DNA of 64,000 nucleotides. Source: Candidatus Omnitrophota bacterium. GTDB lineage: Bacteria > Omnitrophota > Gorgyraeia > Duberdicusellales > 4484-171. Shown here piece by piece: positions 1-19,745 of this stretch (its first letter is position 1; every line of letters begins with the position of its first letter). Position numbers and translations under genes: made by a program. The stretch spans positions 304,960-368,959 of the forward strand of contig PMCS01000029.1 in NCBI GenBank assembly GCA_003154195.1, read 5' to 3'. The notes beneath the pieces were generated by a model. That model did no database searches. It saw nothing but the letters and a program-made list of their open reading frames with translations, and was not told the origin of the DNA.

Positions 1-196
1 ACGGGAATTTATTCATATCGAAAGATTGGCCAATCTGAGTGCGCTGCCGCCGTTCGGGTTTAAGGTCAATTGTTTTCCGGTTAAGATAAAAAATACGGGA
101 GGCGCGTGGGCGCGGGTTGTGGCGATTGTATAGGGTAGGGGCGGGTTTATAACCCACCCTCTATGAAATTGTGGAATTGTATAATCAAAATCGGCG

Positions 197-340
197 AAAA
201 AATTTCACCACAGAGGACACAGAGAGGAACAAAACAGGAAAAATAATTTCTCACCACGAAGACGCGAAGTTCACGAAGAAGAAATAAAGACAAAAGATTT
301 TTGTCCACAGATTACACAGATTTTCACAGATTGATAAAAG
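197..340. repeat. Low-complexity CACAGAG/CACGAAG-type repeats: two forward arm copies of the TIR motif found at 12.6, 18.8 and 19.6 kb, then three CACAGATT units
   Basis: The strings aatttcaccacagaggacacagagaggaaca and tctcaccacgaagacgcgaagttcacgaagaag resemble ttaccacgaaggcacaaagaacacgaag found at 12610 and 19600. cacagatt occurs three times at 307-340. Confidence 0.6.
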
Positions 341-420
341 GGTGATAGGTTGTGAAAGATAATAAATTGGAGAAAGATTTTAACAACGAATTACGCAAAT
401 TGCACAAATTAAAATAATTT

Positions 421-1182
421 ATGATTCTTGAAAAACAGTTCGAAGGTATACTCTGTAAGTATCCGGAGCTGATAGAAGACGGTTTAAAATTCAAAGGTCG
501 GCAGATTACCCTTTATGGTAAAAGAATGGATATTTTATTCGAAGACAAGTTCGGGCAGAAACTTATCGTCGAGCTTAAAGTTCGTACCGTTGTCCGTGAA
601 CATATCGGACAAGTTATGGAGTATGAAGGCGGTGTCTTAAGCGTAGAAGATCCCACTGCTAGGATTATGCTGGTCGGCAATAGAGTGCCGCCTAATTTAA
701 AAAAGGCATTGGACCATCATGGGATAGAGTGGAAAGAGATTACCTTTTCTTATTTAAAAGAATTTTTATCTGTTCGCAACGATAGAGAGCTCGGCATTTT
801 ATTCGATGATGGCTTAACGCCGTCTACTCTGGGCGATAGCAAGGATATGGATAAAGATTTCTCAGCCGGGTTAGAGGTTAATAAAACTCAAGATAATTCT
901 GCAAATGCTACAAGAACTAAACGGCAACAGCCATCGTATGGGTCGCCAGAATGGGTAGAAAGGCGGAAAAAAACCGGCTTTCGGGACGATTGGATTGCCC
1001 GGCTGGAAGCTTTGAAGAAGGACCCAAAAAATATTGAAGAACTCTACAGGTTTTGGGGGTATCGCCCGTGGCCGGGTGGGTTTGCCAAGAGGTTACGCAA
1101 TCGGGCAAAAGTATATCCCCAGTATGCAAAGGCAATCGAGGAAGCGATTGCTTTTGTAAAGTCAGCAAAGAAAGGTTTTTGA
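421..1182 (+). CDS. PD-(D/E)xK nuclease, DUF91/NucS-like N-terminal domain with an uncharacterised C-terminal extension
   Basis: The N-terminus carries a D..E.K nuclease signature (MDILFEDKFGQKLIVELK) typical of the NucS/DUF91 fold. The ORF is 253 aa and its ATG directly follows an A-rich leader. Confidence 0.5.
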   Translation: MILEKQFEGILCKYPELIEDGLKFKGRQITLYGKRMDILFEDKFGQKLIVELKVRTVVREHIGQVMEYEGGVLSVEDPTARIMLVGNRVPPNLKKALDHHGIEWKEITFSYLKEFLSVRNDRELGILFDDGLTPSTLGDSKDMDKDFSAGLEVNKTQDNSANATRTKRQQPSYGSPEWVERRKKTGFRDDWIARLEALKKDPKNIEELYRFWGYRPWPGGFAKRLRNRAKVYPQYAKAIEEAIAFVKSAKKGF

Positions 1183-1283
1183 TATTGCTTAATACTGGAA
1201 ATATGAACAATCTGCTGAAGGAAAAATTGTTCAGATACTGTCTGAACAATTAGTTTTAAGGTTACTTTAGGCAGGCATCAATT

Positions 1284-1829
1284 ATGAAAGATAATTCAAA
1301 ACAAATCGAGGTGGTTTCAAGCGGAGTTATCGCCGGAAAGATACGTCTAATCCGCGGGAAAAAAGTCATATTTGATAGTGATCTTGCCGCTTTGTATGGT
1401 GTTGAGACGAAACAGCTAAAACGTGCTGTTAAGCGAAATATTGAGCGGTTTCCCGAAGATTTTATGTTTGAACTTACCCGCGAAGAATCAGATAACTTGA
1501 GGTGCCAAATTGGCACCTCAAGTTGGGGCGGCAAGCGCTACCTGCCGTATGCTTTTACCGAACAGGGCGTTGCCATGCTTTCCAGCGTTTTAAACAGTAA
1601 AAGGGCTATCCAAGTCAATATTGCTATTATGCGTGTTTTTGTGGCGATTAAGGAAATGCTTTTAGCGCATAAAGAATCATTGCTCAAAATTAATAAACTT
1701 GAACAGAGAATAGAACGAAAATTCGATAAATACGACAAAGACATCGAACTTATTTTCAGCGCTATTCAGCAACTTCTTGTGGAAAAAGAAAAACCCAAGC
1801 GACAAATCGGCTTTCATGTTGGTAAATAA
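1284..1829 (+). CDS. ORF6N (KilA-N-like) domain protein
   Basis: Strong match to the ORF6N family signature: IRGKKV.FDSDLAALYGVETKQLKRAVKRNIERFPEDFMFELT...TSSWGGKRYLPYAFTEQGVAMLSSVL. Confidence 0.8.
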   Translation: MKDNSKQIEVVSSGVIAGKIRLIRGKKVIFDSDLAALYGVETKQLKRAVKRNIERFPEDFMFELTREESDNLRCQIGTSSWGGKRYLPYAFTEQGVAMLSSVLNSKRAIQVNIAIMRVFVAIKEMLLAHKESLLKINKLEQRIERKFDKYDKDIELIFSAIQQLLVEKEKPKRQIGFHVGK

Positions 1830-1851
1830 GAATTTTATTTAACTTTTTTTT

Positions 1852-1889
1852 AACTTTAGGCATTTTAGGCACTTTGAACTTTAGGCATT
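1852..1889. promoter_or_regulatory. Three tandem TTTAGGCAYTTT repeats directly upstream of the SRPBCC gene RBS
   Basis: The sequence is aactttaggcattttaggcactttgaactttaggcatt. It is followed by AAGGGGG and the ATG at 1907. Confidence 0.3.
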
Positions 1890-1906
1890 AAAAAGGGGGT
1901 AATTAA

Positions 1907-2335
1907 ATGGCTCATACGGTAAATCGCATCGTGATCAACGCTCCTTACGAAAAGGTTTTTGAGATGTCTAACGATATTACCCGCTGGAAGGAATTTTTTG
2001 ACGAGTATACGGCCAGCGAAGTAGTTTCCCAGGAAGGCAACAAAATTACTTTTAAGCTAAGCCATCAAAATGGGACAAGCTGGACCAGCTATCGCCTGCT
2101 TTTTAAAGACCAGAAATTTACTTATGCCGAGCGCCTTGAGCCGAAAATGCCTTTTGTGTATATGAAGATAATCTGGCTTTACCGGGAAGTCGCCGGCGGC
2201 ATCGAAATGAGCTGGATCCAGGATTTTACGATGGATTCAAAAGCGAAATTCAACGACGCGCAGGTAGAAGAGATAATGAATAAACATTCCGCGGAAAATA
2301 TGAAACGGTTTAAGGAAATCATCGAGAAGGCATAA
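1907..2335 (+). CDS. SRPBCC (Bet v1/START-like, polyketide cyclase/dehydrase family) protein
   Basis: A 142-aa protein with a Polyketide_cyc2-like profile (NRIVINAPYEKVFEMSNDITRWKEFF...). RBS AAGGGGG. Confidence 0.6.
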   Translation: MAHTVNRIVINAPYEKVFEMSNDITRWKEFFDEYTASEVVSQEGNKITFKLSHQNGTSWTSYRLLFKDQKFTYAERLEPKMPFVYMKIIWLYREVAGGIEMSWIQDFTMDSKAKFNDAQVEEIMNKHSAENMKRFKEIIEKA

Positions 2336-2380
2336 GCATTGTTTGTAAATCACATAGCTAAACTATAAAAAAGGAGCGAG

Positions 2381-2923
2381 ATGAAAAAAAGCTTGAAACG
2401 CAAGAATCCTTCAGTTCAGCCGGCGGCCGGACCGGATATCTCTGGCCTGGTGGTTAAAATGCAGGAGCAATTGGTTAATTTGGAGCGGAAGGTAGATATT
2501 TTAATCAGCCGTCTTCCGGGAAGACCCCCGGAAGTTAAGCTTCAGCCGGTTCAACCGGTTCAACAACTGCAACAGTCCCGGCAGCCTCAACCGCCGCTTC
2601 GCCAGAATGAGATTAAGCAAAATAACGGCTTCAGGGAGAGAACCTTGTATAAAACAATCTGCGCCGATTGCCACAAAGAATGCGAAGTTCCCTTTAAGCC
2701 CAGCGGTAATCGTCCGGTATATTGTAAAGAGTGTTTTTCCCGGCGCAAGCAAAGCGGCGGTTTATTTAAAGGAAATAATAACCCTCAGCCGGGGGAAATA
2801 AAACCTGTGTCTGTCGCGGTGCCTCCGGTTTCTTCGTCACCTGCGGCCACCAAACCGGAGATCACTAAAACCAGAAAGCCCGGCGCTAAGAAAAAAACTG
2901 TTTCCCCGAAACGGAAAAAATGA
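2381..2923 (+). CDS. Pro/Gln-rich protein with a CxxC-x17-CxxC zinc ribbon
   Basis: Motif CADCHKECEVPFKPSGNRPVYCKECF, a Lys-rich C-terminus, and RBS AAAGGAG. Confidence 0.5.
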   Translation: MKKSLKRKNPSVQPAAGPDISGLVVKMQEQLVNLERKVDILISRLPGRPPEVKLQPVQPVQQLQQSRQPQPPLRQNEIKQNNGFRERTLYKTICADCHKECEVPFKPSGNRPVYCKECFSRRKQSGGLFKGNNNPQPGEIKPVSVAVPPVSSSPAATKPEITKTRKPGAKKKTVSPKRKK

Positions 2924-2929
2924 TTTTAT

Positions 2930-5113
2930 GTGATTATCAGAATACTTTTTTGGTGTGCTTTGATGAAGAAACTTTTAAAATTATTAAAGATTGCCGCAAT
3001 GGCTTTACTGGTTATTTTTATTCTGGCGTCAGCCGGTATTGTCATTTTTATTAAAACTTTTAACGCCAATAAATATAAGCCCCAGATAATTAAAGCAATC
3101 AGCCAAGCTCTCGGCCGGCCGGCGGCTATTGATGATATAAGCCTGAAAGTTTCCTTAAGGGGCGGCCTGGTTTTACAGCTTAAGGGCTTTAGATTAAACG
3201 ATGACCCGGCTTTCAGTAAAGATAATTTTTTAGAAATACCCCGGTTAGATGCTGCGATGGATATCATCGGTATTATTTTTAAGCACCGGATTTCCCTCGC
3301 GGTCATTACGATTGATGCACCTAAGACAGTGATTATTCGCGACGCTTCCGGCAGGCTTAATCTCCAAACCTTTGGCATGCCAACCGCGTCAAAACCATCG
3401 GCTTCGGCATTACCGGCAATTTTTATCAACTCATTTAAAATAAATAATGCCGCCGTAATCTTCAAGGATAAGGCCTTTTCCCCCGGGCTCTCAATCCTGC
3501 TTGATCAGCTTAACTTCGAAATAAAAGATTTTTCTCTGGATAAGCCTTTTGATGTTTTGCTGCAGGCGGCGGCGTTCAGCCCCCGGCAAAATTTCAACGC
3601 TTCCGCAAAACTCGCCTTGGATTTAATCGCCAGGGCGGTTAAAGTCTGCGATGCCCGGGCGTCGGTTGATCTCGGCTCCTTTTCTTTAGAGCAATTATCC
3701 CGTTTACCGATGATAAAACCGGGACAACTTCCCGAATTTTTATCCGGTAAAGTAGAGATAGTGTTCGCGCCGATAACCGTTTCGAAAAAAGGTTTAAGCC
3801 GGCTTTCCGCTGACATAACTTTAACTGACGGCGTGGTGGCGGCTTCTCATTTAATACCAGGTTTAGCGCTTAATCTCGGGAAGATAAACGGTTCCTTAAA
3901 GAACTTTTCTCCGGATTTTAAAAAGCCTTTTGATGCCAGCGTGAAAATGCAGTATTTAAGCGACCACCCTAATGTCAGTTTTAACGGGCAGGTAACTTTT
4001 GATCCGGTAAAAACATCAGTCCGGATAAGCAATGCCGGGATAGGGCTGGACCTGACGAATTTTTCCTTAAGCGGGCTTAAGGCCGATGTGGCCGCGCTTA
4101 AAGACGTCCCTTTGCCGGTTCAGGTAGGAGGAACCATCGACGTCTCTATCGTTAACGCGGATATCTCCGCAAAAGGGCTGGAAAGCCTGGCGGCAAAAGC
4201 TAAATTTACCAACGGTTTGGTTAAGCTTGACCAGCTTAACCAAGTGCTTTCTGGGATAAGCGTGGATGCAAGTTTAAACGAAAAAGATCTAACCATTGAT
4301 AACCTTAGCGCCGGCCTGGGAAAAGGTAGCATCCGGGCTAAGGGTGTGGTGAAGGATTATTTATCCGGCCGGGCGTTTGAGTTGGAAGCGGAAATAAAGG
4401 ATATTGAACTTGGCGAAGTAATCGAACAGTCTAAGGCGCAAATAAAGGTGAGCGGTTTAGCGGCGGGCAATTTCAAGGCCGCCGGTCATGCCGATGATTT
4501 AAAATCAATAAAAGCCGACGGCGTTTTTACGGTCAAGCCGGTTACGCTTAAGAATTTTAATATTTTAAAAACAGTTTTAGAGAAGATTTCTTTTTTGCCC
4601 AATGCCAGCGAAGGGATTAAGAACGGGTTAAGCAATAAATACGCTAAGAAGCTGGAAAGCCCCGATACCGAGATAAATAGCGCGGTGTTTACTTATGCGT
4701 TTTCGCAAGGCACGGTTCATCTTGAACCGGTGTCGATTGATGCCGATGAGTTTATCTTCAGTGGTAAAGCCGACGCGGATTTGGCTCAAGCCTATACGGT
4801 CGAAGGGAATGTGACTATTCCCGCCGAGCTTTCCGCGGCAATGGCCAAGGGTGTGGATGAACTGAAATATCTTTATGACGATAAGAACAGCATTACTATC
4901 CCGGTTTATGTCAAAGGACAGGGGGCCCAGGCGCCTAAAGTGGAAGTAACCCGGACTGCCGCACAATTAACTAAAAGTGTGGCGGTCAATAAAGGGGCGG
5001 AAGCGCTCGGCAAGTTAATCAATAAGTATACGGGAGGCGACAATGCTTCCGGTGAAGAAAATAATAACGGCAGCGAGGTCATCAAAGGCATTCTTAATAA
5101 AATTCTGAAGTAA
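2930..5113 (+). CDS. asmA: AsmA-family outer-membrane biogenesis protein
   Basis: An N-terminal TM helix followed by an AsmA-like region (AIDDISLKVSLRGGLVLQLKGFRLNDDPAFSKDNFLEIPRLDAAMDII); 727 aa. An alternative ATG lies at 2963. Confidence 0.7.
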   Translation: MIIRILFWCALMKKLLKLLKIAAMALLVIFILASAGIVIFIKTFNANKYKPQIIKAISQALGRPAAIDDISLKVSLRGGLVLQLKGFRLNDDPAFSKDNFLEIPRLDAAMDIIGIIFKHRISLAVITIDAPKTVIIRDASGRLNLQTFGMPTASKPSASALPAIFINSFKINNAAVIFKDKAFSPGLSILLDQLNFEIKDFSLDKPFDVLLQAAAFSPRQNFNASAKLALDLIARAVKVCDARASVDLGSFSLEQLSRLPMIKPGQLPEFLSGKVEIVFAPITVSKKGLSRLSADITLTDGVVAASHLIPGLALNLGKINGSLKNFSPDFKKPFDASVKMQYLSDHPNVSFNGQVTFDPVKTSVRISNAGIGLDLTNFSLSGLKADVAALKDVPLPVQVGGTIDVSIVNADISAKGLESLAAKAKFTNGLVKLDQLNQVLSGISVDASLNEKDLTIDNLSAGLGKGSIRAKGVVKDYLSGRAFELEAEIKDIELGEVIEQSKAQIKVSGLAAGNFKAAGHADDLKSIKADGVFTVKPVTLKNFNILKTVLEKISFLPNASEGIKNGLSNKYAKKLESPDTEINSAVFTYAFSQGTVHLEPVSIDADEFIFSGKADADLAQAYTVEGNVTIPAELSAAMAKGVDELKYLYDDKNSITIPVYVKGQGAQAPKVEVTRTAAQLTKSVAVNKGAEALGKLINKYTGGDNASGEENNNGSEVIKGILNKILK

Positions 5114-5170
5114 GCGGCTTGCGATGAGGCTTGGAATTTTGGGACTATCTTCTTTAAAATACAAATAATT

Positions 5171-6499
5171 ATGGATAATTTATTTCAACAATCGGAAAAA
5201 ACTTATACGGTTTTAGAATTAAACACCGCGGTGAAAAACCTTATCCGCAACGAATTTCCCGATCACGTCTGGGTCTGCGGCGAAATTCAGGATCTGCGCG
5301 ACCGGGGCGTAATAAATTTAAACCTGGTGCAGAAACACCAGAAGTTTGACGAAATCACCGCGCAGGCCAAAGCGGTAATTTTTGAAAATATCAAACCGCT
5401 GATCATGCGCCGGCTTAAAGAAGCGGACGAAACATTCGAATTAAAAAAAGATATCGAAGTAAAACTGCTTTGCCGGGTTGACCTTTACGCCAAGACCGGC
5501 CAATTCAGTTTGACGGTAGTCGATATCGACCCATATTTCACTCTGGGTAAAATCGCTGCCTCCCGCCAGAAGATCATCGAAGAATTAAAAGTTAAGGGGC
5601 TGCTGGAAAAAAATAAAAGCCTTTTCTTCCCCGAAGTCCCGTTAAACATCGGATTGGTCACTTCTTATGATTCCGCGGCGTTTCACGATTTTGTTCATGA
5701 GCTGGAACAGTCGGGGTTTGGGTTTAAGGTATCGGTATGGGATTCTTATGTGCAGGGGAAGCAGACCGAAACCGACGTGACCGTAGCGCTTAATTATTTT
5801 GGCGGCCGCCCGGCCGGAGAAATCGACGTGGTAGTGATTTCCCGCGGCGGCGGCTCAACCGCGGATTTAAGCTGGTTTGACAATAAACAGATCGCCGAAG
5901 CGATCGCCTCTTGCCCGATACCGGTGATCACTGCCCTGGGGCACCAGATCAATGTCACGGTATGCGATATTGTTTCCCATACCAGCGTTAAGACGCCGAC
6001 TAAGGCGGCGCAGTTTTTGATCGATAAAGTAAGCGATTTTAAAACGGCGATTACGCAGTTAAGCGGCACGGTTATCGCCGCGAGCGAAGATATCCTCGCC
6101 GGTTCCCGGAGTAAGCTGGCCGGCGCGGCTTCGCGCATTGAATCGTTAAGCCAGAGGTTTTTCCGGTTTCATCAACAAAACCTCGCGGAGCAGCGGGTGG
6201 GAATTTTCCGCGCCGCCGAAGAAATGGTTAAAACTAGAAAAGAAAAGATAAAAGAACAAAGCTTCCTGTTGCGGGATTCGCTAAAAAAACTCTTTAAAAA
6301 TCTGGAAAATGAGGTAAAATATATTACCGATAAGGTAAGCCTGCTAAATCCCCGTAATGTTTTAAAGCGCGGCTATTCCTTAACCCTCAAGCGAGAGAAA
6401 ACCGTTAGATCGTTAAACGATTTAGAGCGGGGCGATATCATCAAAACTATTCTTTATGAGGGTTCGGTGATTTCCCAGGTTAAAGAGAAAAATGAATAA
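5171..6499 (+). CDS. xseA: Exodeoxyribonuclease VII large subunit
   Basis: N-terminal OB fold plus catalytic domain (TVLELNTAVKNLIRNEFPDHVWVCGEI). Overlaps xseB by 8 nt. Confidence 0.9.
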   Translation: MDNLFQQSEKTYTVLELNTAVKNLIRNEFPDHVWVCGEIQDLRDRGVINLNLVQKHQKFDEITAQAKAVIFENIKPLIMRRLKEADETFELKKDIEVKLLCRVDLYAKTGQFSLTVVDIDPYFTLGKIAASRQKIIEELKVKGLLEKNKSLFFPEVPLNIGLVTSYDSAAFHDFVHELEQSGFGFKVSVWDSYVQGKQTETDVTVALNYFGGRPAGEIDVVVISRGGGSTADLSWFDNKQIAEAIASCPIPVITALGHQINVTVCDIVSHTSVKTPTKAAQFLIDKVSDFKTAITQLSGTVIAASEDILAGSRSKLAGAASRIESLSQRFFRFHQQNLAEQRVGIFRAAEEMVKTRKEKIKEQSFLLRDSLKKLFKNLENEVKYITDKVSLLNPRNVLKRGYSLTLKREKTVRSLNDLERGDIIKTILYEGSVISQVKEKNE

Positions 6500-6713
6500 A
6501 AAGGCCGTTAAATACAGAGAAGCGGTTGATGAATTAAACAATATTTTAGAGGATTTACAATCGGAAGAGATCGATGTGGACGAAGTTTCCGAGAAGGTAA
6601 AGCGGGCGGTCGAGCTGATTAAGTTATGCCGCGCGAAAATCGAAGGCACGGAATTGGAAGTGAGAAAGATCGTCAAAGAGTTCGAAGAAGAATCGGAAAA
6701 GAATAACGGTTAG
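6492..6713 (+). CDS. xseB: Exodeoxyribonuclease VII small subunit
   Basis: A 73-aa helical protein (YREAVDELNNILEDLQSEEIDVDEVSEKVKRAVELIKLCRAKI) sitting directly after xseA. Confidence 0.85.
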   Translation: MNKKAVKYREAVDELNNILEDLQSEEIDVDEVSEKVKRAVELIKLCRAKIEGTELEVRKIVKEFEEESEKNNG

Positions 6714-10336: not shown

Positions 10337-12591
10337 AACAACTCTCTTCTTTTTTGAAGAGCGCTTATCTTCTTTTTGCCGCCGCCATTATCTTTCTAAG
10401 CCTGATTTCCTATTCGCCGCTCGACATCCCATTTTTAACTTATCCCACTCCGTTAAAAGTAAATAATCTGATTGGCGTTTGGGGAGGCTATTTAGCTTGT
10501 ACCCTTCGTTTTCTTTTCGGCTATGCCGCCTATTTTTTGCCGTTTTACCTTTTTTTCTTAGGCATAGCGTTTTTGGGAAAGGTTCGTTTTCATGGCCTGG
10601 CGAAGAGCCGGACAATGAGCATCTTTTCGTTTTTATTTTTTATTACATTTTTGGCGACGTTGATCGCGGTTTTCTTTGAAGGTAGAAACGCGGTTTTTGA
10701 AGCCGGCGGCCTGGCGGGATTTTTGCTTGCGGATTTTTTTAAGAAATACTTAGGGTTCTACGGCCTGGTGATTACTTCAACCTTTATTCTGGTGATTACG
10801 GCGATATTGCTGTTCGGGTTTTTCTTTGTAGATTTATTAGCGCTGGCCAAAGAAATAATCGCTGAAATTTCCGCAAGATGGGCTGATCGGAAAAACAAAA
10901 AGGAAGAAGGCGGCAAGGTAAAGCCGATAAAAATTTTCGATAAAAAACCGCAAGCGCCGGATAAGCGGGAAGAGAAACAAAAAATTACCCCGGCGGCGAT
11001 AAATAAAACGGAAGTAAAACCGGAAATCAAAGTCTACGCGCCCAAGGTTCCGGAGGCGGTAAAGCCGGCCGTCGGGCAAAACGCTCTTGCTAAAGAAAAA
11101 GTAGTAAATCCCGATGAAATTAAAAAGAAAATCGAAGCTTTGGAGAGCGGCATCAAAAATAAATTCGACCCGGCAACTTATAAATTGCCGGAAATAAGCC
11201 TCCTGAAGGTCCCGCCGCACCTTGATTACCGCGAGGTCAAGGAAGATATTGAGGCGAGCATCAAGAATCTGGAAGAAACGCTTCTGGAATTCGGCGTGGA
11301 AGCGAAAGTGGTAAGCGTGCAAAAGGGCCCGGTAGTCACGATGTATGAACTGGAGCCCTCGGCCGGCGTAAAAATACAAAAAATTTCCGCCCTGGCCGAC
11401 GATATCGCCCTGGCGATGAAGTCATCGAGCGTGCGCATTGTCGCGCCGATCCCCGGAAGAGGCACGATCGGCGTGGAAGTCCCCAATGAAAAAAAACACC
11501 TCGTTTATTTAAGGGAAGTCCTGGAAGAGAAGACCTTTATCGAAGCGGCCTCGAAACTTACCATATCAATCGGCAAGGATGTTTCCGGCAATTGCGTCGT
11601 TGCGGATTTAAAAGATATGCCGCATCTTTTGATTGCCGGGGCTACCGGCTCGGGGAAGACGGTTTGTGTCAATTCTTTGATTACCTCTGTGCTTTTTAAA
11701 GCTAAACCCGATGAGGTTAAGTTTATCCTGGTCGATCCCAAGATGGTAGAGCTCGCTCCTTTTGCCGGCATCCCCCATCTGATTCATCCGATAATCTCCG
11801 ATTCGAAAAAAGCTTTTGCCGCCCTGAATTGGGCGGTGGGAGAGATGGAGCGCCGTTATAAGATACTGGCGGCCGAGGGCGTGCGCAATATCGATAGCTA
11901 TAATAAAGGAGTAAAAAAACTGCCTTATATAATTATCGTTATTGATGAACTGGCGGATTTAATGTTGGTGGCGCGAGAGAACGTCGAAACTTCGATTCAA
12001 CGCCTGGCGCAATTATCCCGTGCAGTCGGAATTCATTTAATATTGGCCACCCAAAGGCCGTCGGTTGATGTAATCACCGGGGTTATCAAAGCTAATTTTC
12101 CGGCGCGGATATCCTTTAAAGTTTCGGCAAAAGTTGATTCGCGCACGATTCTTGATGCCATGGGCGCCGATAAACTTTTAGGTAAGGGCGATTTGTTATT
12201 TTTAAAGCCGGGGGCGATAAAAATAATACGGGCGCAAGGTTCTTTTATTGATGACGAAGATATAGATAATCTTACTGATTTTATCAGAAAGCAAGGCGGC
12301 CCGGTTTATGAAGATGGGATTGTCGAGGCGGAAAAAAAGAATATTCTGGACATCGAGGGCGATGAGTTATATGATGAAGCGGTAAAAGTTGTGATGCAGT
12401 CGCGTCAGGCTTCCGCTTCAATATTACAGCGGCGGATGCGCGTGGGGTACACCCGGGCAGCCCGGCTTCTGGATTTAATGGAGCAAAAAGGAGTAGTGGG
12501 GCCGTTTTGTGGCAGCAAAGCCCGGGAAATTCTCCTCGACCCGGAAGGTTACCTTCAAGCGGATTCACAAGCCAAAGAGGAAGGGATATGA
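10333..12591 (+). CDS. ftsK: DNA translocase FtsK
   Basis: N-terminal TM region, linker, Walker A motif (GATGSGKT) and a gamma winged-helix C-terminus. Confidence 0.9.
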   Translation: MKQLSSFLKSAYLLFAAAIIFLSLISYSPLDIPFLTYPTPLKVNNLIGVWGGYLACTLRFLFGYAAYFLPFYLFFLGIAFLGKVRFHGLAKSRTMSIFSFLFFITFLATLIAVFFEGRNAVFEAGGLAGFLLADFFKKYLGFYGLVITSTFILVITAILLFGFFFVDLLALAKEIIAEISARWADRKNKKEEGGKVKPIKIFDKKPQAPDKREEKQKITPAAINKTEVKPEIKVYAPKVPEAVKPAVGQNALAKEKVVNPDEIKKKIEALESGIKNKFDPATYKLPEISLLKVPPHLDYREVKEDIEASIKNLEETLLEFGVEAKVVSVQKGPVVTMYELEPSAGVKIQKISALADDIALAMKSSSVRIVAPIPGRGTIGVEVPNEKKHLVYLREVLEEKTFIEAASKLTISIGKDVSGNCVVADLKDMPHLLIAGATGSGKTVCVNSLITSVLFKAKPDEVKFILVDPKMVELAPFAGIPHLIHPIISDSKKAFAALNWAVGEMERRYKILAAEGVRNIDSYNKGVKKLPYIIIVIDELADLMLVARENVETSIQRLAQLSRAVGIHLILATQRPSVDVITGVIKANFPARISFKVSAKVDSRTILDAMGADKLLGKGDLLFLKPGAIKIIRAQGSFIDDEDIDNLTDFIRKQGGPVYEDGIVEAEKKNILDIEGDELYDEAVKVVMQSRQASASILQRRMRVGYTRAARLLDLMEQKGVVGPFCGSKAREILLDPEGYLQADSQAKEEGI

Positions 12592-12604
12592 AGGCAATCC
12601 ATTA

Positions 12605-12790
12605 AAACCTAAAATTTACCACGAAGGCACAAAGACACAAAGAAGATTAAGAATTATATTTTTCTTTTTTGTTGTTCTTGGTGACTCCGTCCCCTTCGGG
12701 GAGGCTTCGCTTCGCTGCGCACTGTCTTGGTGACAAAGTTTTCGGCTCTATTTTTTAGTGACTTAGTGGTGGAATCTTTACGGTTTGAAA
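12605..12790. repeat. MITE-like intergenic element with CACGAAG-type terminal inverted repeats and an internal UUCG-tetraloop hairpin core
   Basis: Left arm aaaatttaccacgaaggcacaaagacacaaagaag. Core gtccccttcggggaggcttcgcttcgctgcgcactg. Right arm cttagtggtggaatctttacgg is the reverse complement of the left arm. The element is homologous to sequences at 18725-18925 and 19596-19745. Confidence 0.7.
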
Positions 12791-13752: not shown

Positions 13753-13814
13753 TTATTTTTACGAAGTAAAAATAATCATCATTCCAAAAAATGCGTTTGA
13801 AAACGCATTTTTTG
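13751..13814. terminator. Two consecutive perfect hairpins right after the rodZ stop codon
   Basis: GATTATTTTTAC-GAA-GTAAAAATAATC at 13751-13777 and AAAAATGCGTTT-GA-AAACGCATTTTTT at 13785-13814. The second is flanked by A-runs and T-runs, giving it a bidirectional character. Confidence 0.6.
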
Positions 13815-13899
13815 GGTAAAGAGACGGAACACCCACACCGGCGAATTAGCCGTACAAAAAAATGATTGACAAATAAGACCGTAGGAGTAAAGTAAGGTT

Positions 13900-14047
13900 A
13901 CAATTTGGCGTGGTGCAGTTTGAAGGAGTAAATCCGCCACGTTCCGCCAAGAGCGGACCAGCCTGTAAAAAACATCAAGGAAGCTGGAAAACAACAAAAA
14001 CCTTCGTTTGATTGTGCACGGTACAATTAGGCGAAGGTTTTTTTATT
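13900..14047 (+). ncRNA. Putative small RNA ending in a strong intrinsic terminator
   Basis: Promoter-like TTGACA at 13866 with TAAAGT 16 nt downstream, and TACAAT at 13899. No ORF is present. Internal hairpins are CCGC-CAAGA-GCGG and CCAGC...GCTGG. The terminator is AACCTTCG...CGAAGGTT followed by TTTTTTT at 13999-14047. Confidence 0.35.
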
Positions 14048-14070
14048 TTCTTTGCAATTATTTGGGTTTA

Positions 14071-14194
14071 TTCTTTGCAGAGAAAATGACCCGCCGACGA
14101 ATTGTGGCGGGTATATATGCCCGCAGTTGTATAGGCTTATTCCTTGCAGGTAAAATTACCCGTCAAAGGGTTGCGGCGGGTTATTTAGAGGTGA
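14071..14194 (+). repeat. Two tandem ~55-nt direct repeats, each with a GC hairpin and possible alternative pairing
   Basis: TTCTTTGCAGAGAAAATGACCCGCC-GACGAATTGT-GGCGGGT is duplicated as TTCCTTGCAGGTAAAATTACCCGTC...GCGGCGGGT. GGCGGG can pair either with the upstream ACCCGCC or with the downstream GCCCGC, which gives the region an attenuator-like look. Confidence 0.5.
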
Positions 14195-14276
14195 GGACGA
14201 ACAAATAGGTTTATAGGGAAAAATTGGAAGTCACAGATTGCGACTTCCAATTAAAATAAAGACAGGAGAATGATAT

Positions 14277-15350
14277 ATGAAACTTGAGTTAAGGCATGAC
14301 GGGAATTATATAAAATGGTTGGCGGCTATCAAGCTCAAAATTCGACAAGTACAGCTTAAGGCGGCGGTAAAAGTAAATACCGAACTTTTAACTTTTTATT
14401 GGGAACTCGGGGTGGATATTGTACAAAAACAAGCTGAAGCAAAATGGGGCGATGGTTTAATCGGGCAATTAAGCAAGGATCTATCTGCTGAATTTCCCGA
14501 TATAAAAGGTTTCTCTCGAACAAACCTCTTATATATCCGTCAATGGTATATGTTTTATTTCGAAAATTTTAAGAAAATCCCACAGGCTGTGGGACAAATG
14601 AGTAATGCATTTGTTAAAGAAATTTTTCAGGTTCCCTGGGGGCATAATAGAGAAATTGTCGCCAAATGTAAAACATTAGAAGAAGCTGTTTTTTATGTTC
14701 GTAATACAATCAAACACAATTGGAGCCGCGCGGTATTAGTGCATCAGATAGAATGGGGGCTTTTCCGCAGAGAGGGAAAAGCTGTCAATAATTTTGCGTT
14801 GACGTTGCCGAAGCCTCATTCGGATTTAGCTATGCAAACTCTCAATGACCCGTATATTTTTGACTTCTTGGCTATGACAAAAGATTATGACGAGAGAGAA
14901 CTGGAAAAGGCTTTGACTGGGCATATAACAACATTCTTATTGGAATTGGGTACCGGTTTTGCTTATGTGGGCCGGCAAATCCCGCTGCATGTTGGTGAAA
15001 GTGAATTTTTTATAGATTTGCTTTTTTATCATTTAAAGCTCCGTTGTTATGTGGTGATAGAGTTGAAAACGGTAGCGTTTCAGCCGGAGTTTGCCGGCAA
15101 ATTGAATTTCTACGTAACGGCCGTGGACCGTCGGTTGCGGAATGAATTAGACCGGCAAACGATTGGTATCTTCATATGTAAAACAAAAGATAAAGTCGTA
15201 GCCGAATACTCTTTAAGCGATATCAAAAAGCCCCTCGGCATTTCTGAATACCGCTTAACACAATCTCTGCCGAAGAAGTTTAAGTCAAGCTTGCCTTCGA
15301 TTCAGGAGATTAAGGCAGGGTTGAGTGGAGATGGAAACAAGGAAAAATGA
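14277..15350 (+). CDS. DUF1016 / YhcG-like PD-(D/E)xK nuclease family protein
   Basis: A C-terminal PDDEXK core (FIDLLFYHLKLRCYVVIELK) and an N-terminal YhcG-like helical domain. RBS AGGAG lies 8 nt before the ATG, which is preceded by a 9-bp hairpin at 14229-14252. Confidence 0.75.
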   Translation: MKLELRHDGNYIKWLAAIKLKIRQVQLKAAVKVNTELLTFYWELGVDIVQKQAEAKWGDGLIGQLSKDLSAEFPDIKGFSRTNLLYIRQWYMFYFENFKKIPQAVGQMSNAFVKEIFQVPWGHNREIVAKCKTLEEAVFYVRNTIKHNWSRAVLVHQIEWGLFRREGKAVNNFALTLPKPHSDLAMQTLNDPYIFDFLAMTKDYDERELEKALTGHITTFLLELGTGFAYVGRQIPLHVGESEFFIDLLFYHLKLRCYVVIELKTVAFQPEFAGKLNFYVTAVDRRLRNELDRQTIGIFICKTKDKVVAEYSLSDIKKPLGISEYRLTQSLPKKFKSSLPSIQEIKAGLSGDGNKEK

Positions 15351-15593
15351 ACATATTGAAAAGGCGTTAATTATGGCGAATTCGCCATATTAAAAAATGA
15401 AGCTACTGACAAAACATAAAGGATTGAGGCGGTTGGAATAAAGCTATTTAAAACTCCAACAACTTGTTGGAGAAATTAACTGGAAAAATATCTGCCCATT
15501 ATGCAAGGAGCTGATAGACCCATTGGAATGGTTTTTTATGAACAGTTTTGAGTTTGTTGAGGTGAGCTTGAAGCAGTCGTTAGGGTTTACCAG

Positions 15594-15632
15594 AAAAAAA
15601 TTTTAACAACGAATATCGCAAATCGCGCGAAT
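15594..15632. repeat. ~37-nt motif TTTTAACAACGAATNTCGCAAATNGCNCNAAT, second copy (first copy at 374-410 upstream of the DUF91 nuclease)
   Basis: aaaaaaattttaacaacgaatatcgcaaatcgcgcgaatg here matches gaaagattttaacaacgaattacgcaaattgcacaaatt at 374-410. Confidence 0.55.
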
Positions 15633-15668
15633 GTTTCTTTCGATGGGATGGAGCAGGAAGGCGGGGAA

Positions 15669-15914
15669 TTAAGTGAGCTGTCCCCCGAATCCCCCGATTG
15701 TTTCCTCTTCGCGCAGCCAATAAGAAAACCCCGCCGGTTTTTTGTTTACCCGGAGTACGTCGATTTTCGTATGAGGGATATTGAGCGATTCTATTGCATC
15801 CTTGAGGGAAGGGGTACCTTTAACCTGACAGGATAATCCTTTTGCGCAACGGTTCTTTGGTAAAAATATCTTAAGATTGCCGTGGAAACGAAATTTTACC
15901 GTAATTTCGTCCAT
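15669..15914 (-). CDS. Mut7-C ubiquitin-like (MoaD/ThiS-fold) domain protein, stand-alone
   Basis: Matches the Mut7-C_ubiquitin pattern FRF.G.L..FLP.........S.KD.IE.L.IPHT.ID...VN.K...FSY.L. No RNase (DUF82) domain is attached. Confidence 0.6.
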   Translation of the reverse strand: MDEITVKFRFHGNLKIFLPKNRCAKGLSCQVKGTPSLKDAIESLNIPHTKIDVLRVNKKPAGFSYWLREEETIGGFGGQLT

Positions 15915-17149
15915 CGTAATTTTGCTGCCCCCATGCCGGCTTCATGGTTAATTCCCGGGTCGCTGACACGGCCCATGAATAAAATCGTATTCGTAGTGTT
16001 ATCTTTAATCACAAAAATAAAAGGGTGGTCGGCTTGAAAAAACACCGATTCCGAATCCGTGTGCATTAACGCTTCTCCTGTGGCTGCGGCAGCTTCGGTA
16101 CCTTCCTCGTTAACTTCCACAAAAGCCTTGTGAAAAATATCACCGATATATAGAACGCCTTTCTCCACATTAGCCATACCGCTGAAATCAGCCCTTGTAT
16201 TGCTGAAAGTTTCTTTCATGCCCAAGGATACCAGGGATTTTTTTAAGGGAATTTCTGGGGCAGTTTTGAATTTAGGCAGGTAAACTATTACTTTTCGGGA
16301 ATCAGGCAAAGTGATTAAATCATTCAACTTGCCGGAATCTAAAGCATTTTCCACCGCATTAATGCCGTTTTTTTCTTTGGGTAAAATCACCACCATCGAT
16401 AATTTTTCGCCCCGGTAAGGCAGGGCCAATATCTGGACGTCATTGGTTTCTTTGTAGGCGTACTCTCTGTTTTGGGTCATCATTGTTGCGTTTATGGGAT
16501 TATCCGGGGTCAAGTAAAAAGGCATGTCTTTGGTATCTTCTTTTTTGAATTCCGCGGCCCACTTGCCTTTGAAATAAATAGCGTTGGTTAAAACCAGGTG
16601 GGCTTGGTCATTCAGAGATCCCCCCGGCAGTAAATCTTTGATGCGTCGTTTAGTTTTTTCTTCTACCCAGGAGTTGATGCGTATCCTTACTTGTTCATAG
16701 TCATGTTTAAAATCTACCTTTTCCAGGGCATTGGCGTAGTTAATTTTAACCAACTCGAGATATTGGTGGTAAAAATCAAACGACTGTTCCGCCCAAAGCG
16801 AGTTGGCGATATTCAACTCGATATCGCCGAAAGCGGCAGCTTGATTGAGCGTCTCGTTTAAGGCTTTAAAGCCGGGGTGGATATTCTGGCCGCAAGCGTA
16901 GTGCATTACTCCGGCGATTTCCTCCGCCGTGGTAGTTTTTGCTCCGGCATAAGCCATGGCCATGCAGCCGGAGATACTGTAGGGAGAAAAGAAGATATTG
17001 CCGGGTTCACTCCGGGCTTGGTTATATAAATCCAAGGCAAAAGCGTTGATGGCTTGGCCGGCGTCTTTAGCCGTCGCGCTTTGCGCCGGAGCTGAAGGGC
17101 AAAATAAAAGAAACATTGCGGCTAATGCGCCCAAGGTTTTATTTTTCAT
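15896..17149 (-). CDS. Serpin (serine protease inhibitor) with N-terminal signal peptide
   Basis: Signal peptide MKNKTLGALAAMFLLFCPSAPAQSA. Serpin hinge and reactive-centre-loop region (FHKAFVEVNEEGTEAAAATG...FFQADHPFIFVIKDNTTNTILFMGRVSDP). Confidence 0.85.
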   Translation of the reverse strand: MKNKTLGALAAMFLLFCPSAPAQSATAKDAGQAINAFALDLYNQARSEPGNIFFSPYSISGCMAMAYAGAKTTTAEEIAGVMHYACGQNIHPGFKALNETLNQAAAFGDIELNIANSLWAEQSFDFYHQYLELVKINYANALEKVDFKHDYEQVRIRINSWVEEKTKRRIKDLLPGGSLNDQAHLVLTNAIYFKGKWAAEFKKEDTKDMPFYLTPDNPINATMMTQNREYAYKETNDVQILALPYRGEKLSMVVILPKEKNGINAVENALDSGKLNDLITLPDSRKVIVYLPKFKTAPEIPLKKSLVSLGMKETFSNTRADFSGMANVEKGVLYIGDIFHKAFVEVNEEGTEAAAATGEALMHTDSESVFFQADHPFIFVIKDNTTNTILFMGRVSDPGINHEAGMGAAKLRWTKLR

Positions 17150-17395
17150 AGAGTTACCCCTTTTATCATTGCAGCATGTGAAGGATACCGTTTCCCAGAA
17201 AAGATTATTATCACACTTTTTTTTGGGCAGACAATAATTTTCTTTGCCCCTGATTATTTCGCGGCAAGCCGCGAAAGAATCAGAATTAAAAATTTTTAGA
17301 AGCCGATTGGCGGCATTTTGGGTTAAAATAACCTAAAAACAAGCGTATTGGTATGCTATAATATTAACCGGAAATTAGAAAATTATCTTATCTGA

Positions 17396-17422
17396 GATCC
17401 CGCAGCCTGTGGCTTCGGGATC
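17396..17422 (+). promoter_or_regulatory. 7-bp perfect hairpin in the rimO 5' leader
   Basis: GATCCCG-cagcctgtggctt-CGGGATC. An extended -10 (TGCTATAAT) lies at 17354-17362. Confidence 0.3.
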
Positions 17423-17462
17423 AAGGAAAATATGCCTGAAAGGCAGATTTTTCTTGAATAAT

Positions 17463-18710
17463 ATGCCCCAAAAAACCTTCTCTTTTATTTCCTTAGGTTG
17501 TTTCCGCAACACTTACGATTCGCAGGCTATTGCCCAAAGATTCAGCGACAGCGGGTATCGCTTTGTCGGCGAAGGTGAGCCTTGTGATACGCTGGTCGTC
17601 AATACCTGCGGGTTTATTACTGACGCCAAAAAAGAGTCATTGGGAGTTATTGAAGAAGCAATCGGATTGAAGAAAAAAAGAAAAGTAAAACAGATCATTG
17701 TGGTTGGCTGTCTGGTCGAGCGGTATCGTAAAGATTTAGAAAAAAGTTTTCCTCAAGTGGATGAGTGGCGGGGGGTGGAAGAGTTTAACCGGAAATTTAA
17801 GCCGGGAAAAAATGTTTTCTTACCTAAGCACATCGGTTTTTTAAAAGTTTGCGAAGGTTGTTTTAACCATTGCAGTTACTGCGCCATCCCTCTCATCAAA
17901 GGAAAATTCCGCAGCCGGCCGCTAAAGGAATTAATAAAAGAGGCTCGATTTATGGAAAGAAGCGGTGTTCGGGAATTAAATATTATTGGCCAGGATATCA
18001 CCGGCTGGGGAAGAGATTTAGGCGCAAAACAAGATTTAACGCTTTTGGTGAGAGGTATTTTAAAAAACACGAAAAATATACCATGGATAAGAATGATTTA
18101 CACCCACCCGAAACATTTTTCTCATTCTCTCATCGATTTAATCGCCGGAGAACCGCGAATCTGTAAATATATTGATTTGCCTATCCAGCATATCAACGAC
18201 CGGATCCTGAAATTAATGAATCGGGGTGTAACAAAAAAAGAAATAAAAACTCTTATCGAAACGATAAGAAAGAGAATTCCCGGCTGCCACATCAGGACTT
18301 CTTTGATCGTCGGTTTTCCTTCGGAGACGCAAAAGGAATTCAACGAACTTGTTGATTTTGTTGAAGAAATAAAGTTTGAAAAATTAGGCGTATTTACCTA
18401 TTCGCGGGAAGAGGGTACGCCGGCTTTTCGTTATAGCGGCCAAATCCATCAGAAGACAAAAGAGGCGCGACGCGACGCGATGATGACTATACAAAAAGAA
18501 ATATCGCTGAAAGTAAACGAAAAATTTATCGATAAAGAAACCACGGTTTTGGTTGACGAAAAAAATAAAGACTCCTGTATTGGCCGCACTCAATATGACG
18601 CTTATGAAGTGGACGGAGCGGTTATCCTGCCCGCAGGAGGATTTATCCCCGGAAAATTTTATAAAGTTACCGTAACCGACGCGCTGGAATATGATTTGGT
18701 TGCGGGCTAA
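17463..18710 (+). CDS. rimO: Ribosomal protein S12 methylthiotransferase RimO (MiaB-family radical SAM + TRAM)
   Basis: MTTase N-terminal domain (FISLGCFRNTYDSQ), radical SAM motif CEGCFNHCSYC and a C-terminal TRAM domain. The ORF extends upstream to 17409. Confidence 0.8.
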   Translation: MPQKTFSFISLGCFRNTYDSQAIAQRFSDSGYRFVGEGEPCDTLVVNTCGFITDAKKESLGVIEEAIGLKKKRKVKQIIVVGCLVERYRKDLEKSFPQVDEWRGVEEFNRKFKPGKNVFLPKHIGFLKVCEGCFNHCSYCAIPLIKGKFRSRPLKELIKEARFMERSGVRELNIIGQDITGWGRDLGAKQDLTLLVRGILKNTKNIPWIRMIYTHPKHFSHSLIDLIAGEPRICKYIDLPIQHINDRILKLMNRGVTKKEIKTLIETIRKRIPGCHIRTSLIVGFPSETQKEFNELVDFVEEIKFEKLGVFTYSREEGTPAFRYSGQIHQKTKEARRDAMMTIQKEISLKVNEKFIDKETTVLVDEKNKDSCIGRTQYDAYEVDGAVILPAGGFIPGKFYKVTVTDALEYDLVAG

Positions 18711-18724
18711 ACCCCGGCTTTAAA

Positions 18725-18925
18725 ACTTTTTGCCACAAAGCGCAGTGCGGAGTGAAGCGTAGCCTCCCCGAAGGGGACAGAGCTCACGGAGTAAGAAGAA
18801 ATATTTGAAATCAATAGTTTTTTGTTCCCTTCGGGGAGGCTACGCTTTATTACGCACTGTGATTAGCTATTGAATTTTATCTCTGTGTTCTCTGTGTCCT
18901 CCGTGGTGGAATATCTTTCTGTTCG
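18725..18925. repeat. Two head-to-head copies of the MITE-like element (UUCG/GAAG hairpin core + CACAGAG arm)
   Basis: gcgcagtgcggagtgaagcgtagcctccccgaaggggac is the reverse-complement homolog of the 12680-12720 core. gttcccttcggggaggctacgctttattacgcactgtg is the forward homolog. Together they form a ~140-bp palindrome, with arm ctctgtgttctctgtgtcctccgtggtggaatatcttt. Confidence 0.7.
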
Positions 18926-19026
18926 TATTTCCAAAAAACAGGGGAAGTCCTCCGTTAGTTTTCTCTTGTTTGCCTGCCGCGATAGCGGTAAAATAATTAT
19001 CCCCGCGTATACGCGGGGATAATTAT

Positions 19027-19593
19027 ATGAATATTGCCAACCAGCTTACCATCTTACGGATTTTGCTTGCCTTTATCGCAATGGCGCTTATTTTAAAAAA
19101 TACCCCTTTTTCTTTGTCGTGCGCGTTCGTGGTTTTTCTCATCGCTTCGTTCACCGACTTTTTGGACGGTTTTTTGGCGAGGAAAAAAGAGATAATCTCC
19201 GATTTGGGTAAAATCCTCGACCCTATCGCCGATAAAATTCTTATTATCGGCGTTTTTCTCGCTTTTCTCGAGTTGAATATAGTAAATATCTGGATGGTGA
19301 TAGCGATCATGCTCAGGGAATTTATCATTACCGGCCTGCGCTTGTCGGTTTTAAATAAAGGCGTCGTTTTGGAGGCGCGGTTCCTGGGAAAAAATAAGAC
19401 GGTTTCTCAAATGGCCGGCATTATTTTGATTTTTGTTACGCTGATTTTGTATAAAATTTATCCGGGGAATAAAGTGGTGTTTTTTACTTATTTAAAAATT
19501 ATCCCCGCGGTAATGTGGTATGTCGTGGTGATTACCATTTTTTCCGGCGTGCATTATTTATGGGTGAACCGTAAGCTCATAAAAACATTCTAA
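19027..19593 (+). CDS. pgsA: CDP-diacylglycerol--glycerol-3-phosphate 3-phosphatidyltransferase
   Basis: CDP-alcohol phosphatidyltransferase motif DGFLARKK...GKILDPIADK. Confidence 0.85.
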   Translation: MNIANQLTILRILLAFIAMALILKNTPFSLSCAFVVFLIASFTDFLDGFLARKKEIISDLGKILDPIADKILIIGVFLAFLELNIVNIWMVIAIMLREFIITGLRLSVLNKGVVLEARFLGKNKTVSQMAGIILIFVTLILYKIYPGNKVVFFTYLKIIPAVMWYVVVITIFSGVHYLWVNRKLIKTF

Positions 19594-19595
19594 AT

Positions 19596-19745
19596 ACATT
19601 TTTACCACGAAGGCACAAAGAACACGAAGACAAGATATGATTTTAAATCTTTTTATTTTTCTTAATGCTTCAGATGTTAAAAATCTTTATAGTTTTGGAT
19701 TTTTGATTTTCGTGGCTTAGTGCCTTGGTGGTAAAATCTTTATGG
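19596..19745. repeat. MITE-like element variant with terminal inverted repeats only (no UUCG core)
   Basis: Left arm ttttaccacgaaggcacaaagaacacgaag. The reverse complement of right arm cgtggcttagtgccttggtggtaaaatcttt is aaagattttaccaccaaggcactaagccacg. Confidence 0.65.

Follow-up and report, generated by a model that had tools for sequence, protein, structure and literature searches.

CAC-word foldback repeats and a nested 33-nt insert between housekeeping genes of an Omnitrophota bacterium

Introduction

What are the short repeats that stand between housekeeping genes in a Candidatus Omnitrophota bacterium? The stretch in question (hereafter the window) comprises 64,000 nt of contig PMCS01000029.1 (positions 304,960 to 368,959), and its 8-20 kb region carries the genes rpsO-pnp-ftsK-rodZ ... 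rimO-pgsA-pgpA. An earlier note, made by reading the sequence alone, had seen there a family resembling miniature inverted-repeat transposable elements (MITEs), with terminal inverted repeats around a UUCG-tetraloop core, in the junctions ftsK-rodZ, rimO-pgsA and pgsA-pgpA (here sites A, B and C). The flanking genes are indeed these. What was taken for one element, however, is two nested non-coding repeat classes that the original observation had merged: arms built of CAC words, and a core. We propose that the arms are a foldback repeat class similar to REP/REPIN and STRR repeats, secondarily colonised by a separate 33-nt insert, and that they are not a classical MITE. We put this reading at about an even chance, building on the structure and distribution of the elements, their gain relative to related genomes, a flip in place and a rule for the insertion site of the core.

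Results

Arm grammar and distribution

An arm consists of a leader, TTT(A/C)AC, followed by about three CACNRAG units at 1-2 nt spacing, and spans some 30-35 nt. The window holds 5 two-unit CACNNAG arrays versus 0.03 in Markov resamples, and the stricter pattern CCACNNNGNNCACNNNG occurs twice versus 0.06 expected. With looser dialects included there are 11 arms at five sites, all intergenic and all in the first 20 kb of the window, a stretch that is 13.6% intergenic. The arm family that the earlier note reported at several intergenic sites is thus real.

The grammar is cosmopolitan across phyla, each genome having its own word dialect, rather than the mark of a local family. A scan of viral contigs (IMG/VR) with TTTACCACNNAGN{1,2}CACNNAGN{1,2}CAC gave 75 loci, and a genome scan with an arm pattern of 20 specified bases gave at least 120 matches, with isolates included and more than 15 phyla among the matches listed. 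The phyla and classes among these are Bacteroidota, Planctomycetota, Acidobacteriota, Chloroflexota, Desulfobacterota, Verrucomicrobiota, Nitrospirota, Ignavibacteria, Chlamydiia and Cyanobacteria, with Alpha-, Gamma- and Zetaproteobacteria, Armatimonadota, Gemmatimonadota, Saganbacteria and others besides. Complete genomes with arms include those of Desulfobacter vibrioformis DSM 8776, Thiohalophilus thiocyanatoxydans DSM 16326 and Pinibacter soli. BLAST against plasmid records placed the element in cultured Bacteroides ovatus, B. finegoldii, Gemmatirosa kalamazoonensis (KBS708) and Nostoc; in G. kalamazoonensis (73% GC) it occupies 12 and 9 places on two megaplasmids. The cultured-phage collection searched gave no match. 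Copies are therefore found well beyond the window, in IMG/VR, genomes, metagenomes and plasmid records, and the family is not the window-restricted one that would have counted against the earlier note.

The matches show features that the patterns did not ask for, namely third and fourth units, an inverted partner and the leader, and TTT[A/C]AC was recovered in 190 non-ascertained arms with no conservation beyond position -7. The two-unit regular expression matched 239 times in the genome loci versus 6 times in shuffles, and loci already holding one arm have about 1 extra element per 17 kb. Words are most alike within an arm (identity 0.54), a little less so between partner arms (0.51) and between separate elements of the same locus (0.45), and far less so between loci (0.16-0.18; same-locus versus different-locus elements, p = 1e-37). 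The concertedness of the two variable word positions is therefore mostly a genome-level dialect and points to homogenisation or amplification within genomes. One genome may hold several dialects, as that of the window does, which includes TTTAGGCAC (1853-1887 and, upstream of the window, L235 4899-5010) and CACAGATT. The number of units per arm ranges from 2 to 6, and the loci L109, L169, L216 and L228 contain local tandem duplications.

Paired arms and their gene context

The 422 arms of 196 loci include 103 inward-facing pairs, with leaders outside, versus 16 outward-facing ones; spacers are mostly 10-60 nt. Such a leader-outward pair is predicted to fold back into three 7-bp helices parted by small mismatches. 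An RNAalifold alignment of 24 hairpins yields these three 7-bp helices, with 95.3% of cells pairing versus 89.6% in column shuffles (0 of 500 as high) and a covariation score of 0.204 versus 0.100, so that the arms co-vary as a hairpin, in keeping with the earlier note. The R position is GC in 15 hairpins and AU in 9 and is never broken, while the N position is broken in 5-8 of the 24.

Of the pairs, 61 lie between co-directional, 17 between convergent and 5 between divergent genes, against a background of 552, 140 and 155. Their median distance past the upstream stop is 27 nt, many being at 5-16 nt, and the right arm is frequently 10-20 nt before the next start. At sites A, B and C the left arms begin 13, 12 and 3 nt past the ftsK, rimO and pgsA stops, and in B. 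ovatus 11 nt separate the hairpin from the gmd stop and 15 nt from the start of fcl. This placement suggests an intercistronic mRNA hairpin, co-transcribed inside operons. The hairpins are not classical intrinsic terminators, another role that had been considered for them, because no T-run follows; the right arms end GTGGT(G/T/A)AA, and a terminator scan finds none inside the elements.

The 33-nt core

The core, GTGCGNAGCGAAGCGAAGCCTCCCCGAAGGGGA, is an insert of 33 nt that is nearly invariant; in 33 copies its boundaries are sharp and the flanks are unrelated. Its 20-mer CCTTCGGGGAGGCTWCGCTT occurs three times in the window versus 0 expected (12693, plus strand; 18755, minus; 18828, plus). In copy A (12690-12722) the polarity GTGCG...GGGGA lies on the minus strand and the mRNA-sense strand carries CCCCUUCGGGG; in copy B1 (18745-18777) this polarity lies on the plus strand. 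The diverged copy B2 (18825-18857, minus strand) has 6 substitutions and stands head-to-head with B1, just as had been reported for site B, and the two (18745-18857) fold into a near-perfect 40-bp hairpin. All three window cores have the same polarity relative to the host arm.

A metagenome scan with the core 20-mer gave 27 loci. The core is invariably within a tandem array of some 7-9 nt word, with the junction NA^CN in 27 of the 33 copies and A^C at the word start. Excising exactly 33 nt restores the word period, as in GGAATAC GGAATA^C GGAATAC and CCACAGT CCA^CAGT CCACAGT, and does so in the window arms too; since no extra word is left behind, we rejected a word duplication around the core of the kind that a target-site duplication would leave. 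The core would thus insert in one fixed polarity between the A and C that start a word unit, without target duplication, and may be regarded as a secondary colonist of word arrays. Some of the hosting arrays (L211, L218, L226) have a true 7-nt period, and two loci (L216, L228) hold tandem core copies. Some hosting word arrays also resemble STRR heptamers, as CCACAGT in L226 does CAACAGT and CCCCAGT.

The core is independent of the CAC arms, as there are no CACNNAG arms in 152 kb of core-bearing contigs; most arm elements, for their part, have no core. The one core-bearing contig that was typed is from another Omnitrophota. A stepwise series among its Omnitrophota relatives, upstream of pilB, runs from a compact junction without an element (L245, 88% amino acid identity) through a GATAGAA-word hairpin without core (L243 and L244, 94% and 91% identity) to a similar hairpin with the core at GA^CGATA (L208).

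The C(UUCG)G tetraloop that had been proposed as a stable centre of the element fares poorly. The stem of CCCCTTCGGGG is just 3-4 bp, and outside the window flanking open reading frames (ORFs) of at least 200 amino acids lie 16:2 on the strand that puts CCCCGAAGGGG, and not CCCCUUCGGGG, in the mRNA; the UUCG reading is thus usually on the non-coding strand. As a separate observation, the core of three metagenome contigs (L219 1280-1420, L220 60-230 and L227 2900-3060) lies inside another G+C-rich palindromic repeat, of the gtcattgcgag...gcgaagcaatc type, a type present in many metagenome-assembled genomes.

Gains, a flip and the search for a mobility signature

In four related Omnitrophota loci ftsK and rodZ overlap by 4 nt (ATGA). 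The ancestral ATGA persists in the window at 12588-12591, the end of ftsK, and its ATG opens just a 5-codon ORF (MKAIH*); rodZ starts 201 nt further downstream (12793), with a homologous N-terminus and no obvious Shine-Dalgarno sequence. The rimO-pgsA spacer is 316 nt in the window versus 57-229 nt in relatives, and the pgsA-pgpA spacer 209 nt versus 33-86 nt. In 57 kb of related Omnitrophota we found no CAC arms, other word arrays being present at some junctions. Based on these compact junctions and the lack of arms, the window elements are lineage-specific gains. No strain polymorphism was seen at the window sites, where 13-19 contigs with the window's genes are ~100% identical.

A second kind of change is seen at the gmd-fcl junction of Bacteroides, where the hairpin of B. 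ovatus (L239 4001-4074; NZ_CP081918.1 96278-96351) is flipped in place relative to that of B. finegoldii (L242): 60 of 64 positions are identical as reverse complement versus 48 of 64 in direct alignment, and the flanks are identical at 48 of 50 positions (96%). Phocaeicola has no gmd-fcl hairpin. About 5 kb upstream of the window, L236 (3935-4743) carries two TTTAGGCAC foldbacks flanking a 196-amino-acid ORF; L235 (4899-5007) has a single TTTAGGCAC foldback at this place and lacks the ORF, and two further assemblies are broken at the repeat. Dispersed copies of one genome (L133, L240, L128) have near-identical arms and unrelated loops, and total element length can be kept, both L133 copies being 98 nt.

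Two signatures that the earlier note had suggested looking for did not appear. No direct repeats or target-site duplications surround 67 well-formed pairs, the flanks of which merely extend a T-rich...A-rich inverted symmetry, and there are none at the window sites. When 1475 neighbouring ORFs were clustered all against all, the largest cluster had 12 members, which were not adjacent to arms, and no transposase recurred.

Arms and other features of the window

The list of sites in the earlier note stands as far as it went and was incomplete. Inverted arms are present at sites A, B and C, and there is an extra arm at 15593-15632, with other dialects at 1853-1887 and upstream of the window. At 197-300, where inverted arms had been described, we find instead the beginning of four arms that run in one direction on the plus strand, all upstream of an ORF at 421. 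The first, a solo arm (203-224), has the leader TTTCAC, then CACAGAG GA CACAGAG; the second (247-278) has TTTCTCAC, then CACGAAG A CGCGAAG TT CACGAAG. The third (293-332), in the CACAGATT dialect, has AAAGATTTTTGTC, then CACAGATT A CACAGATT TT CACAGATT, and its units (306-332) have a counterpart upstream of the window on the minus strand of L235 (6486-6512). The fourth (372-410), in the ACGAATT dialect, has GAAAGATTTTAAC, then AACGAATT ACGCAAATT GCACAAATT, and ends 10 nt before the ATG at 421. The word array at 1853-1887 (plus strand), between an ORF6N gene and the next ORF, repeats (A)CTTTAGGCA(C) about 4 times and is related to the TTTAGGCAC foldback at L235 4899-5010.

Site A, previously drawn as a two-arm element at 12605-12790, does contain an inverted pair, the inner arm of which is interrupted by the core, and has one arm more. 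The outer left arm (12604-12645, plus strand) has AAAACCTAAAATTTAC, then CACGAAG G CACAAAG A CACAAAG, and lies past the ftsK stop at 12589-12591. It pairs over a 24-nt A/T-rich spacer with the inner antisense arm (12670-12739, minus strand), which reads TTTGT CACCAAG A CA^CGGAG T CACCAAG AA CAACAAA on the minus strand and has its unit 2 split by the core. A second antisense arm (12753-12787, minus strand), AAACCGTAAAGATTCCAC then CACTAAG T CACTAAA, ends 5 nt before the rodZ ATG (12793).

At site B the left arm (18722-18800, plus strand) has AAAACTTTTTGC, then CACAAAG CG CA^CAGAG CT CACGGAG, with unit 2 split by core B1, and the right arm (18881-18919, minus strand) has GAAAGATATTCCAC, then CACGGAG GA CACAGAG AA CACAGAG. 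Site C consists of a left arm (19596-19633, plus strand) with TTTTTAC, then CACGAAG G CACAAAG AA CACGAAG, and a right arm (19708-19745, minus strand) with ATAAAGATTTTAC, then CACCAAG G CACTAAG C CACGAAA. The solo arm at 15593-15632 (plus strand), in the ACGAAT dialect and 83% identical to the arm at 372-410, lies between a YhcG-like gene and convergent Ub-Mut7C/serpin genes. These belong to the stretch 13753-17408 between rodZ and rimO, with its YhcG/DUF1016 PDDEXK nuclease, Ub-Mut7C and serpin genes; as rodZ and rimO are 13-190 nt apart in related Omnitrophota, this stretch is an inserted gene island beside the repeats.

The window also contains several other non-coding features. A perfect 34-nt palindrome, ATAATTATCCCCGCGTATACGCGGGGATAATTAT (18993-19026), abuts the pgsA ATG (19027) and could be an operator or a start-occluding hairpin. 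A family of A/T-rich palindromes, GTTTATTTTTTGCGCAGTAAAAAATAAAC, occurs at 24481, 25729, 26579, 30842 and 37332, in a part of the window without CAC arms, and may be another type of intergenic hairpin or terminator. A c-di-GMP-I riboswitch aptamer (31618-31801, plus strand; Rfam RF01051, 56.4 bits versus a gathering threshold of 35) lies upstream of a pilin-like gene cluster. Finally, a repeated leader of ~48 nt, TTTTATTTAATGAGACTTCGCCGTAATGAAACTTGCCCGGTACCC, and a shared segment, CAAGCCCGAAGGGCG...GGCGGTAG, are found at 31866-31965, 32588-32635, 44228-44291 and 62360-62407. The genes near this leader also have repeated 5' ends (31121, 32180), with N-termini that are prepilin-type in appearance, and the leader may be a common 5' untranslated region.

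Discussion

Relation to known repeat families

To which known repeats are the CAC arms closest? REP and REPIN sequences are short extragenic repeats associated with RAYT (TnpA-REP) transposases (PMC3116915, PMC3733652, PMC6006769). The likeness extends to their being short, abundant and extragenic, to a hairpin-forming inverted doublet with a spacer as the functional unit, to a position downstream of coding regions between co-directional or convergent genes, and to genome-specific sequence populations without obvious target duplication. There are also clear differences. The REP unit is itself a palindrome of 20-40 bp, whereas the arm, headed by a TTTMAC leader, is a direct CACNRAG array that is not self-complementary. 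At its foot the REP unit bears a GT[AG]G or CGTC tag (PMC3733652, PMC6006769), which the arms lack; their CCAC/GTGG lies on the opposite side and is paired within the stem. REP families are moreover lineage-specific (PMC6006769), whereas the CAC-word grammar is common to more than 15 phyla. The loci examined contain no RAYT gene, a genome-wide search not having been made.

In construction, the closest relatives are the STRRs, cyanobacterial 7-bp tandem repeats able to form intergenic hairpins, for example between hupS and hupL, for which roles in transcript stability or translational coupling have been proposed (PMC2670836). They share with the CAC elements tandem words of heptamer scale, a nearby complementary array and hairpins between co-transcribed genes. 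STRRs are contiguous 7-bp repeats without a leader, however, and were described from filamentous cyanobacteria, whereas CAC arms alternate a 7-nt word with a 1-2 nt spacer (period 8-9 nt), usually have exactly three units and a conserved leader, and occur in more than 15 phyla.

Two further groups deserve comparison. Correia/NEMIS, ERIC, BOX and RUP elements are bacterial MITEs that form transcribed hairpins, with documented effects on mRNA processing and stability. They resemble the CAC elements in their inverted arms, insertion at gene ends and co-transcription with neighbours, and differ in their conserved full length, target duplications (TA for Correia) and narrow hosts; no such family is known to consist of phased short words in which the variable position is genome-specific. 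The core, in turn, recalls the single-stranded DNA elements of the IS200/IS605 type in having a short specific target, fixed polarity, a small hairpin and no target duplication, but it is just 33 nt long, its target is merely A^C at a word start, and the loci examined hold no linked Y1 transposase.

A mobilised foldback repeat and its difficulties

In light of these comparisons, how might the elements arise and act? The arms, which sit just past stop codons, would be gained and lost rapidly and homogenised within each genome. An activity acting in trans may amplify or convert them as DNA; as it would leave the target unduplicated, it would not be a DDE-type transposase. Once in place, the hairpins could shield the message upstream of them, undergo processing, or uncouple translation, as the split of the ancestral ftsK/rodZ ATGA overlap would illustrate.

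Several observations weigh against the reading of the arms as a mobilised foldback class with a core colonist. We identified no mobilising enzyme among the loci examined, and no fresh arm insertion with a clean empty site among the loci compared. The unrelated loops of copies within one genome are awkward for copy-and-paste of a whole element. Arm complementarity is ~78%, with transversions exceeding transitions, so the hairpin may not be the selected feature, and a grammar shared by many phyla could reflect a conserved host factor. For the core, the orientation bias was derived from crude ORF calls, and when all ORFs are counted it is 15:6 (p = 0.08).

Going further, we tentatively suggest that CAC-word foldbacks form a class of intergenic repeats that is pan-bacterial and has not been described, that their conserved grammar and genome-specific dialects would imply a conserved machinery acting in trans (an enzyme that mobilises or converts the repeats, or else a multimeric protein that binds them), and that the core is a site-specific "nano-insertion" at A^C without target duplication. 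If so, the core would be among the smallest mobile DNA modules known. This stronger proposal is possible rather than probable. We found no description of the arm and core strings in the literature searched, weak evidence of their being undescribed, and general searches returned just work on REP, REPIN and STRR repeats.

Other explanations

Could selection act instead on the RNA, the elements being structured cis-regulatory or processing RNAs (such as terminators, attenuators or RNase III sites) in which the UUCG hairpin is a functional core? The position just past stops and within operons, the covariation of the hairpins, the hairpins between consecutive genes of one IMG/VR contig (L076), the orientation bias of the core relative to genes and the strongly negative folding z-scores of the window elements (-2.8, -7.3 and -5.5) would all be expected. 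The sequences behave otherwise in several respects. There is no T-run after the hairpins, and the organism also uses ordinary terminators, such as the canonical one downstream of rodZ (13998-14040, plus strand), which has a 20-bp stem and a T-run. Rfam searches by gathering threshold or E-value gave no relevant family for the window or for 18 hairpin-bearing loci, contrary to the idea of a known RNA family; the sole window match was the riboswitch described above, and sub-threshold matches were generic long hairpins. A strand-specific signature is absent, G.U-compatible mismatches numbering 70 on the sense versus 89 on the antisense strand, and transversions exceed transitions. Moreover, the inter-unit spacers of partner arms are just 22-37% identical and poorly complementary, the elements are not conserved at orthologous junctions, and the UUCG strand is usually not the mRNA strand. 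Selection at the RNA level is therefore, in our view, unlikely to be the primary explanation.

A second alternative is an array of sites on double-stranded DNA to which a conserved protein of the host binds (for example a nucleoid-associated protein or a factor in replication or segregation), one that reads the leader and the phased CAC...AG, with variable positions that drift and are homogenised. Such a protein would account for TTTMAC, CAC and AG being invariant across phyla, including a genome of 73% GC, for solo arms without orientation bias (40 sense versus 55 antisense relative to genes), for the missing strand-specific wobble signature and for tolerance of the in-place flip. It would also fit the leader and first unit, TT(A/C)ACCACA, which is 1-2 mismatches from the DnaA box TTATCCACA, except that box position 4, which must be T, is A in 77% and T in 3% of arms. 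Beyond this, the distribution is patchy, with arms missing from syntenic regions of close relatives, which one would not expect of a function universal to hosts; with a unit period of 8-9 bp the sites do not stay on one helix face; and the inward pairs just past stop codons are left unexplained. We consider such a binding array improbable.

Three more specific candidates were rejected. An array of DnaA boxes (TT(A/T)TNCACA 9-mers) fails at box position 4, and later units match just CAC(A). The units of the arm at 293-332 (TTGTCCACA / GATTACACA / ATTTTCACA) do form three consecutive 9-mers that match the DnaA-box consensus at 7-8 of 9 positions with 9-10 bp spacing, a likeness that is probably coincidental since the main dialects do not match. 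A promoter was suggested by the reverse complement of the window leader, GTGGTAAAATCTTT, which resembles an extended -10 (TGnTAAAAT). Across genomes the consensus is GTGGTKAAA and conservation ends there, the crucial A at -11 is not retained, and a promoter scan showed no excess. A Shine-Dalgarno mimic or standby site was suggested by the many sense arms that precede an ATG, but solo arms show no sense bias and the commonest spacer is A, not G.

A classical MITE, that is, a deletion derivative of an insertion sequence with a DDE transposase, in which the arms are terminal inverted repeats with several transposase-binding sites mobilised in trans, is in our judgement very unlikely. The inward-facing arms with a defined outer boundary (TTTMAC), the patchy phylogenetic distribution with gains relative to relatives, and the genome-specific dialects expected of within-genome amplification do support it, and to this extent the dispersed family with inverted arms of the earlier note survives. 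As a single element of terminal repeats and core it does not. Except at 203-410, terminal inverted repeats are present, but target duplication, whole-length homology and a cognate insertion sequence are not, the last among the 1475 neighbouring ORFs: no direct repeats surround the 67 pairs, internal sequence is unrelated between copies in one genome, and no transposase recurs. In addition, the variable word would demand a separate transposase specificity for each dialect, even in one genome, and many arms are solo or in same-direction tandem.

Lastly, local genesis, with arrays formed by replication slippage and quasi-palindromes by template switching independently in many genomes, would suit the varying unit number, the tandem local duplications, the many unrelated word dialects in the same genome and the unrelated loops, but we regard it as highly doubtful because slippage cannot explain a common TTTMAC leader with invariant CAC and AG across phyla, and neither the 6:1 excess of inward pairs nor a near-invariant 33-nt core in unrelated contexts is accounted for.

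Implications

The reading of the arms as foldback repeats colonised by a separate core would bear on several levels of genome biology. Rearrangement would be affected through deletion between copies and through flips in place, assembly through contigs that break at the repeats, and gene calling through spurious ORFs that run through the arrays. Operon models would be affected as well, since hairpins stand between co-transcribed genes and translational coupling, such as that of ftsK and rodZ, is broken. The core provides a tractable case of site-specific insertion without duplication, and the genome-specific dialect could mark sequence populations within genomes, as REPINs do. The grammar occurs in gut Bacteroides, soil Acidobacteriota, Planctomycetota, Chloroflexota, Omnitrophota and some phage-like contigs; if it is as widespread as the scans suggest, bacterial intergenic DNA would contain a common element that has been left unnamed.

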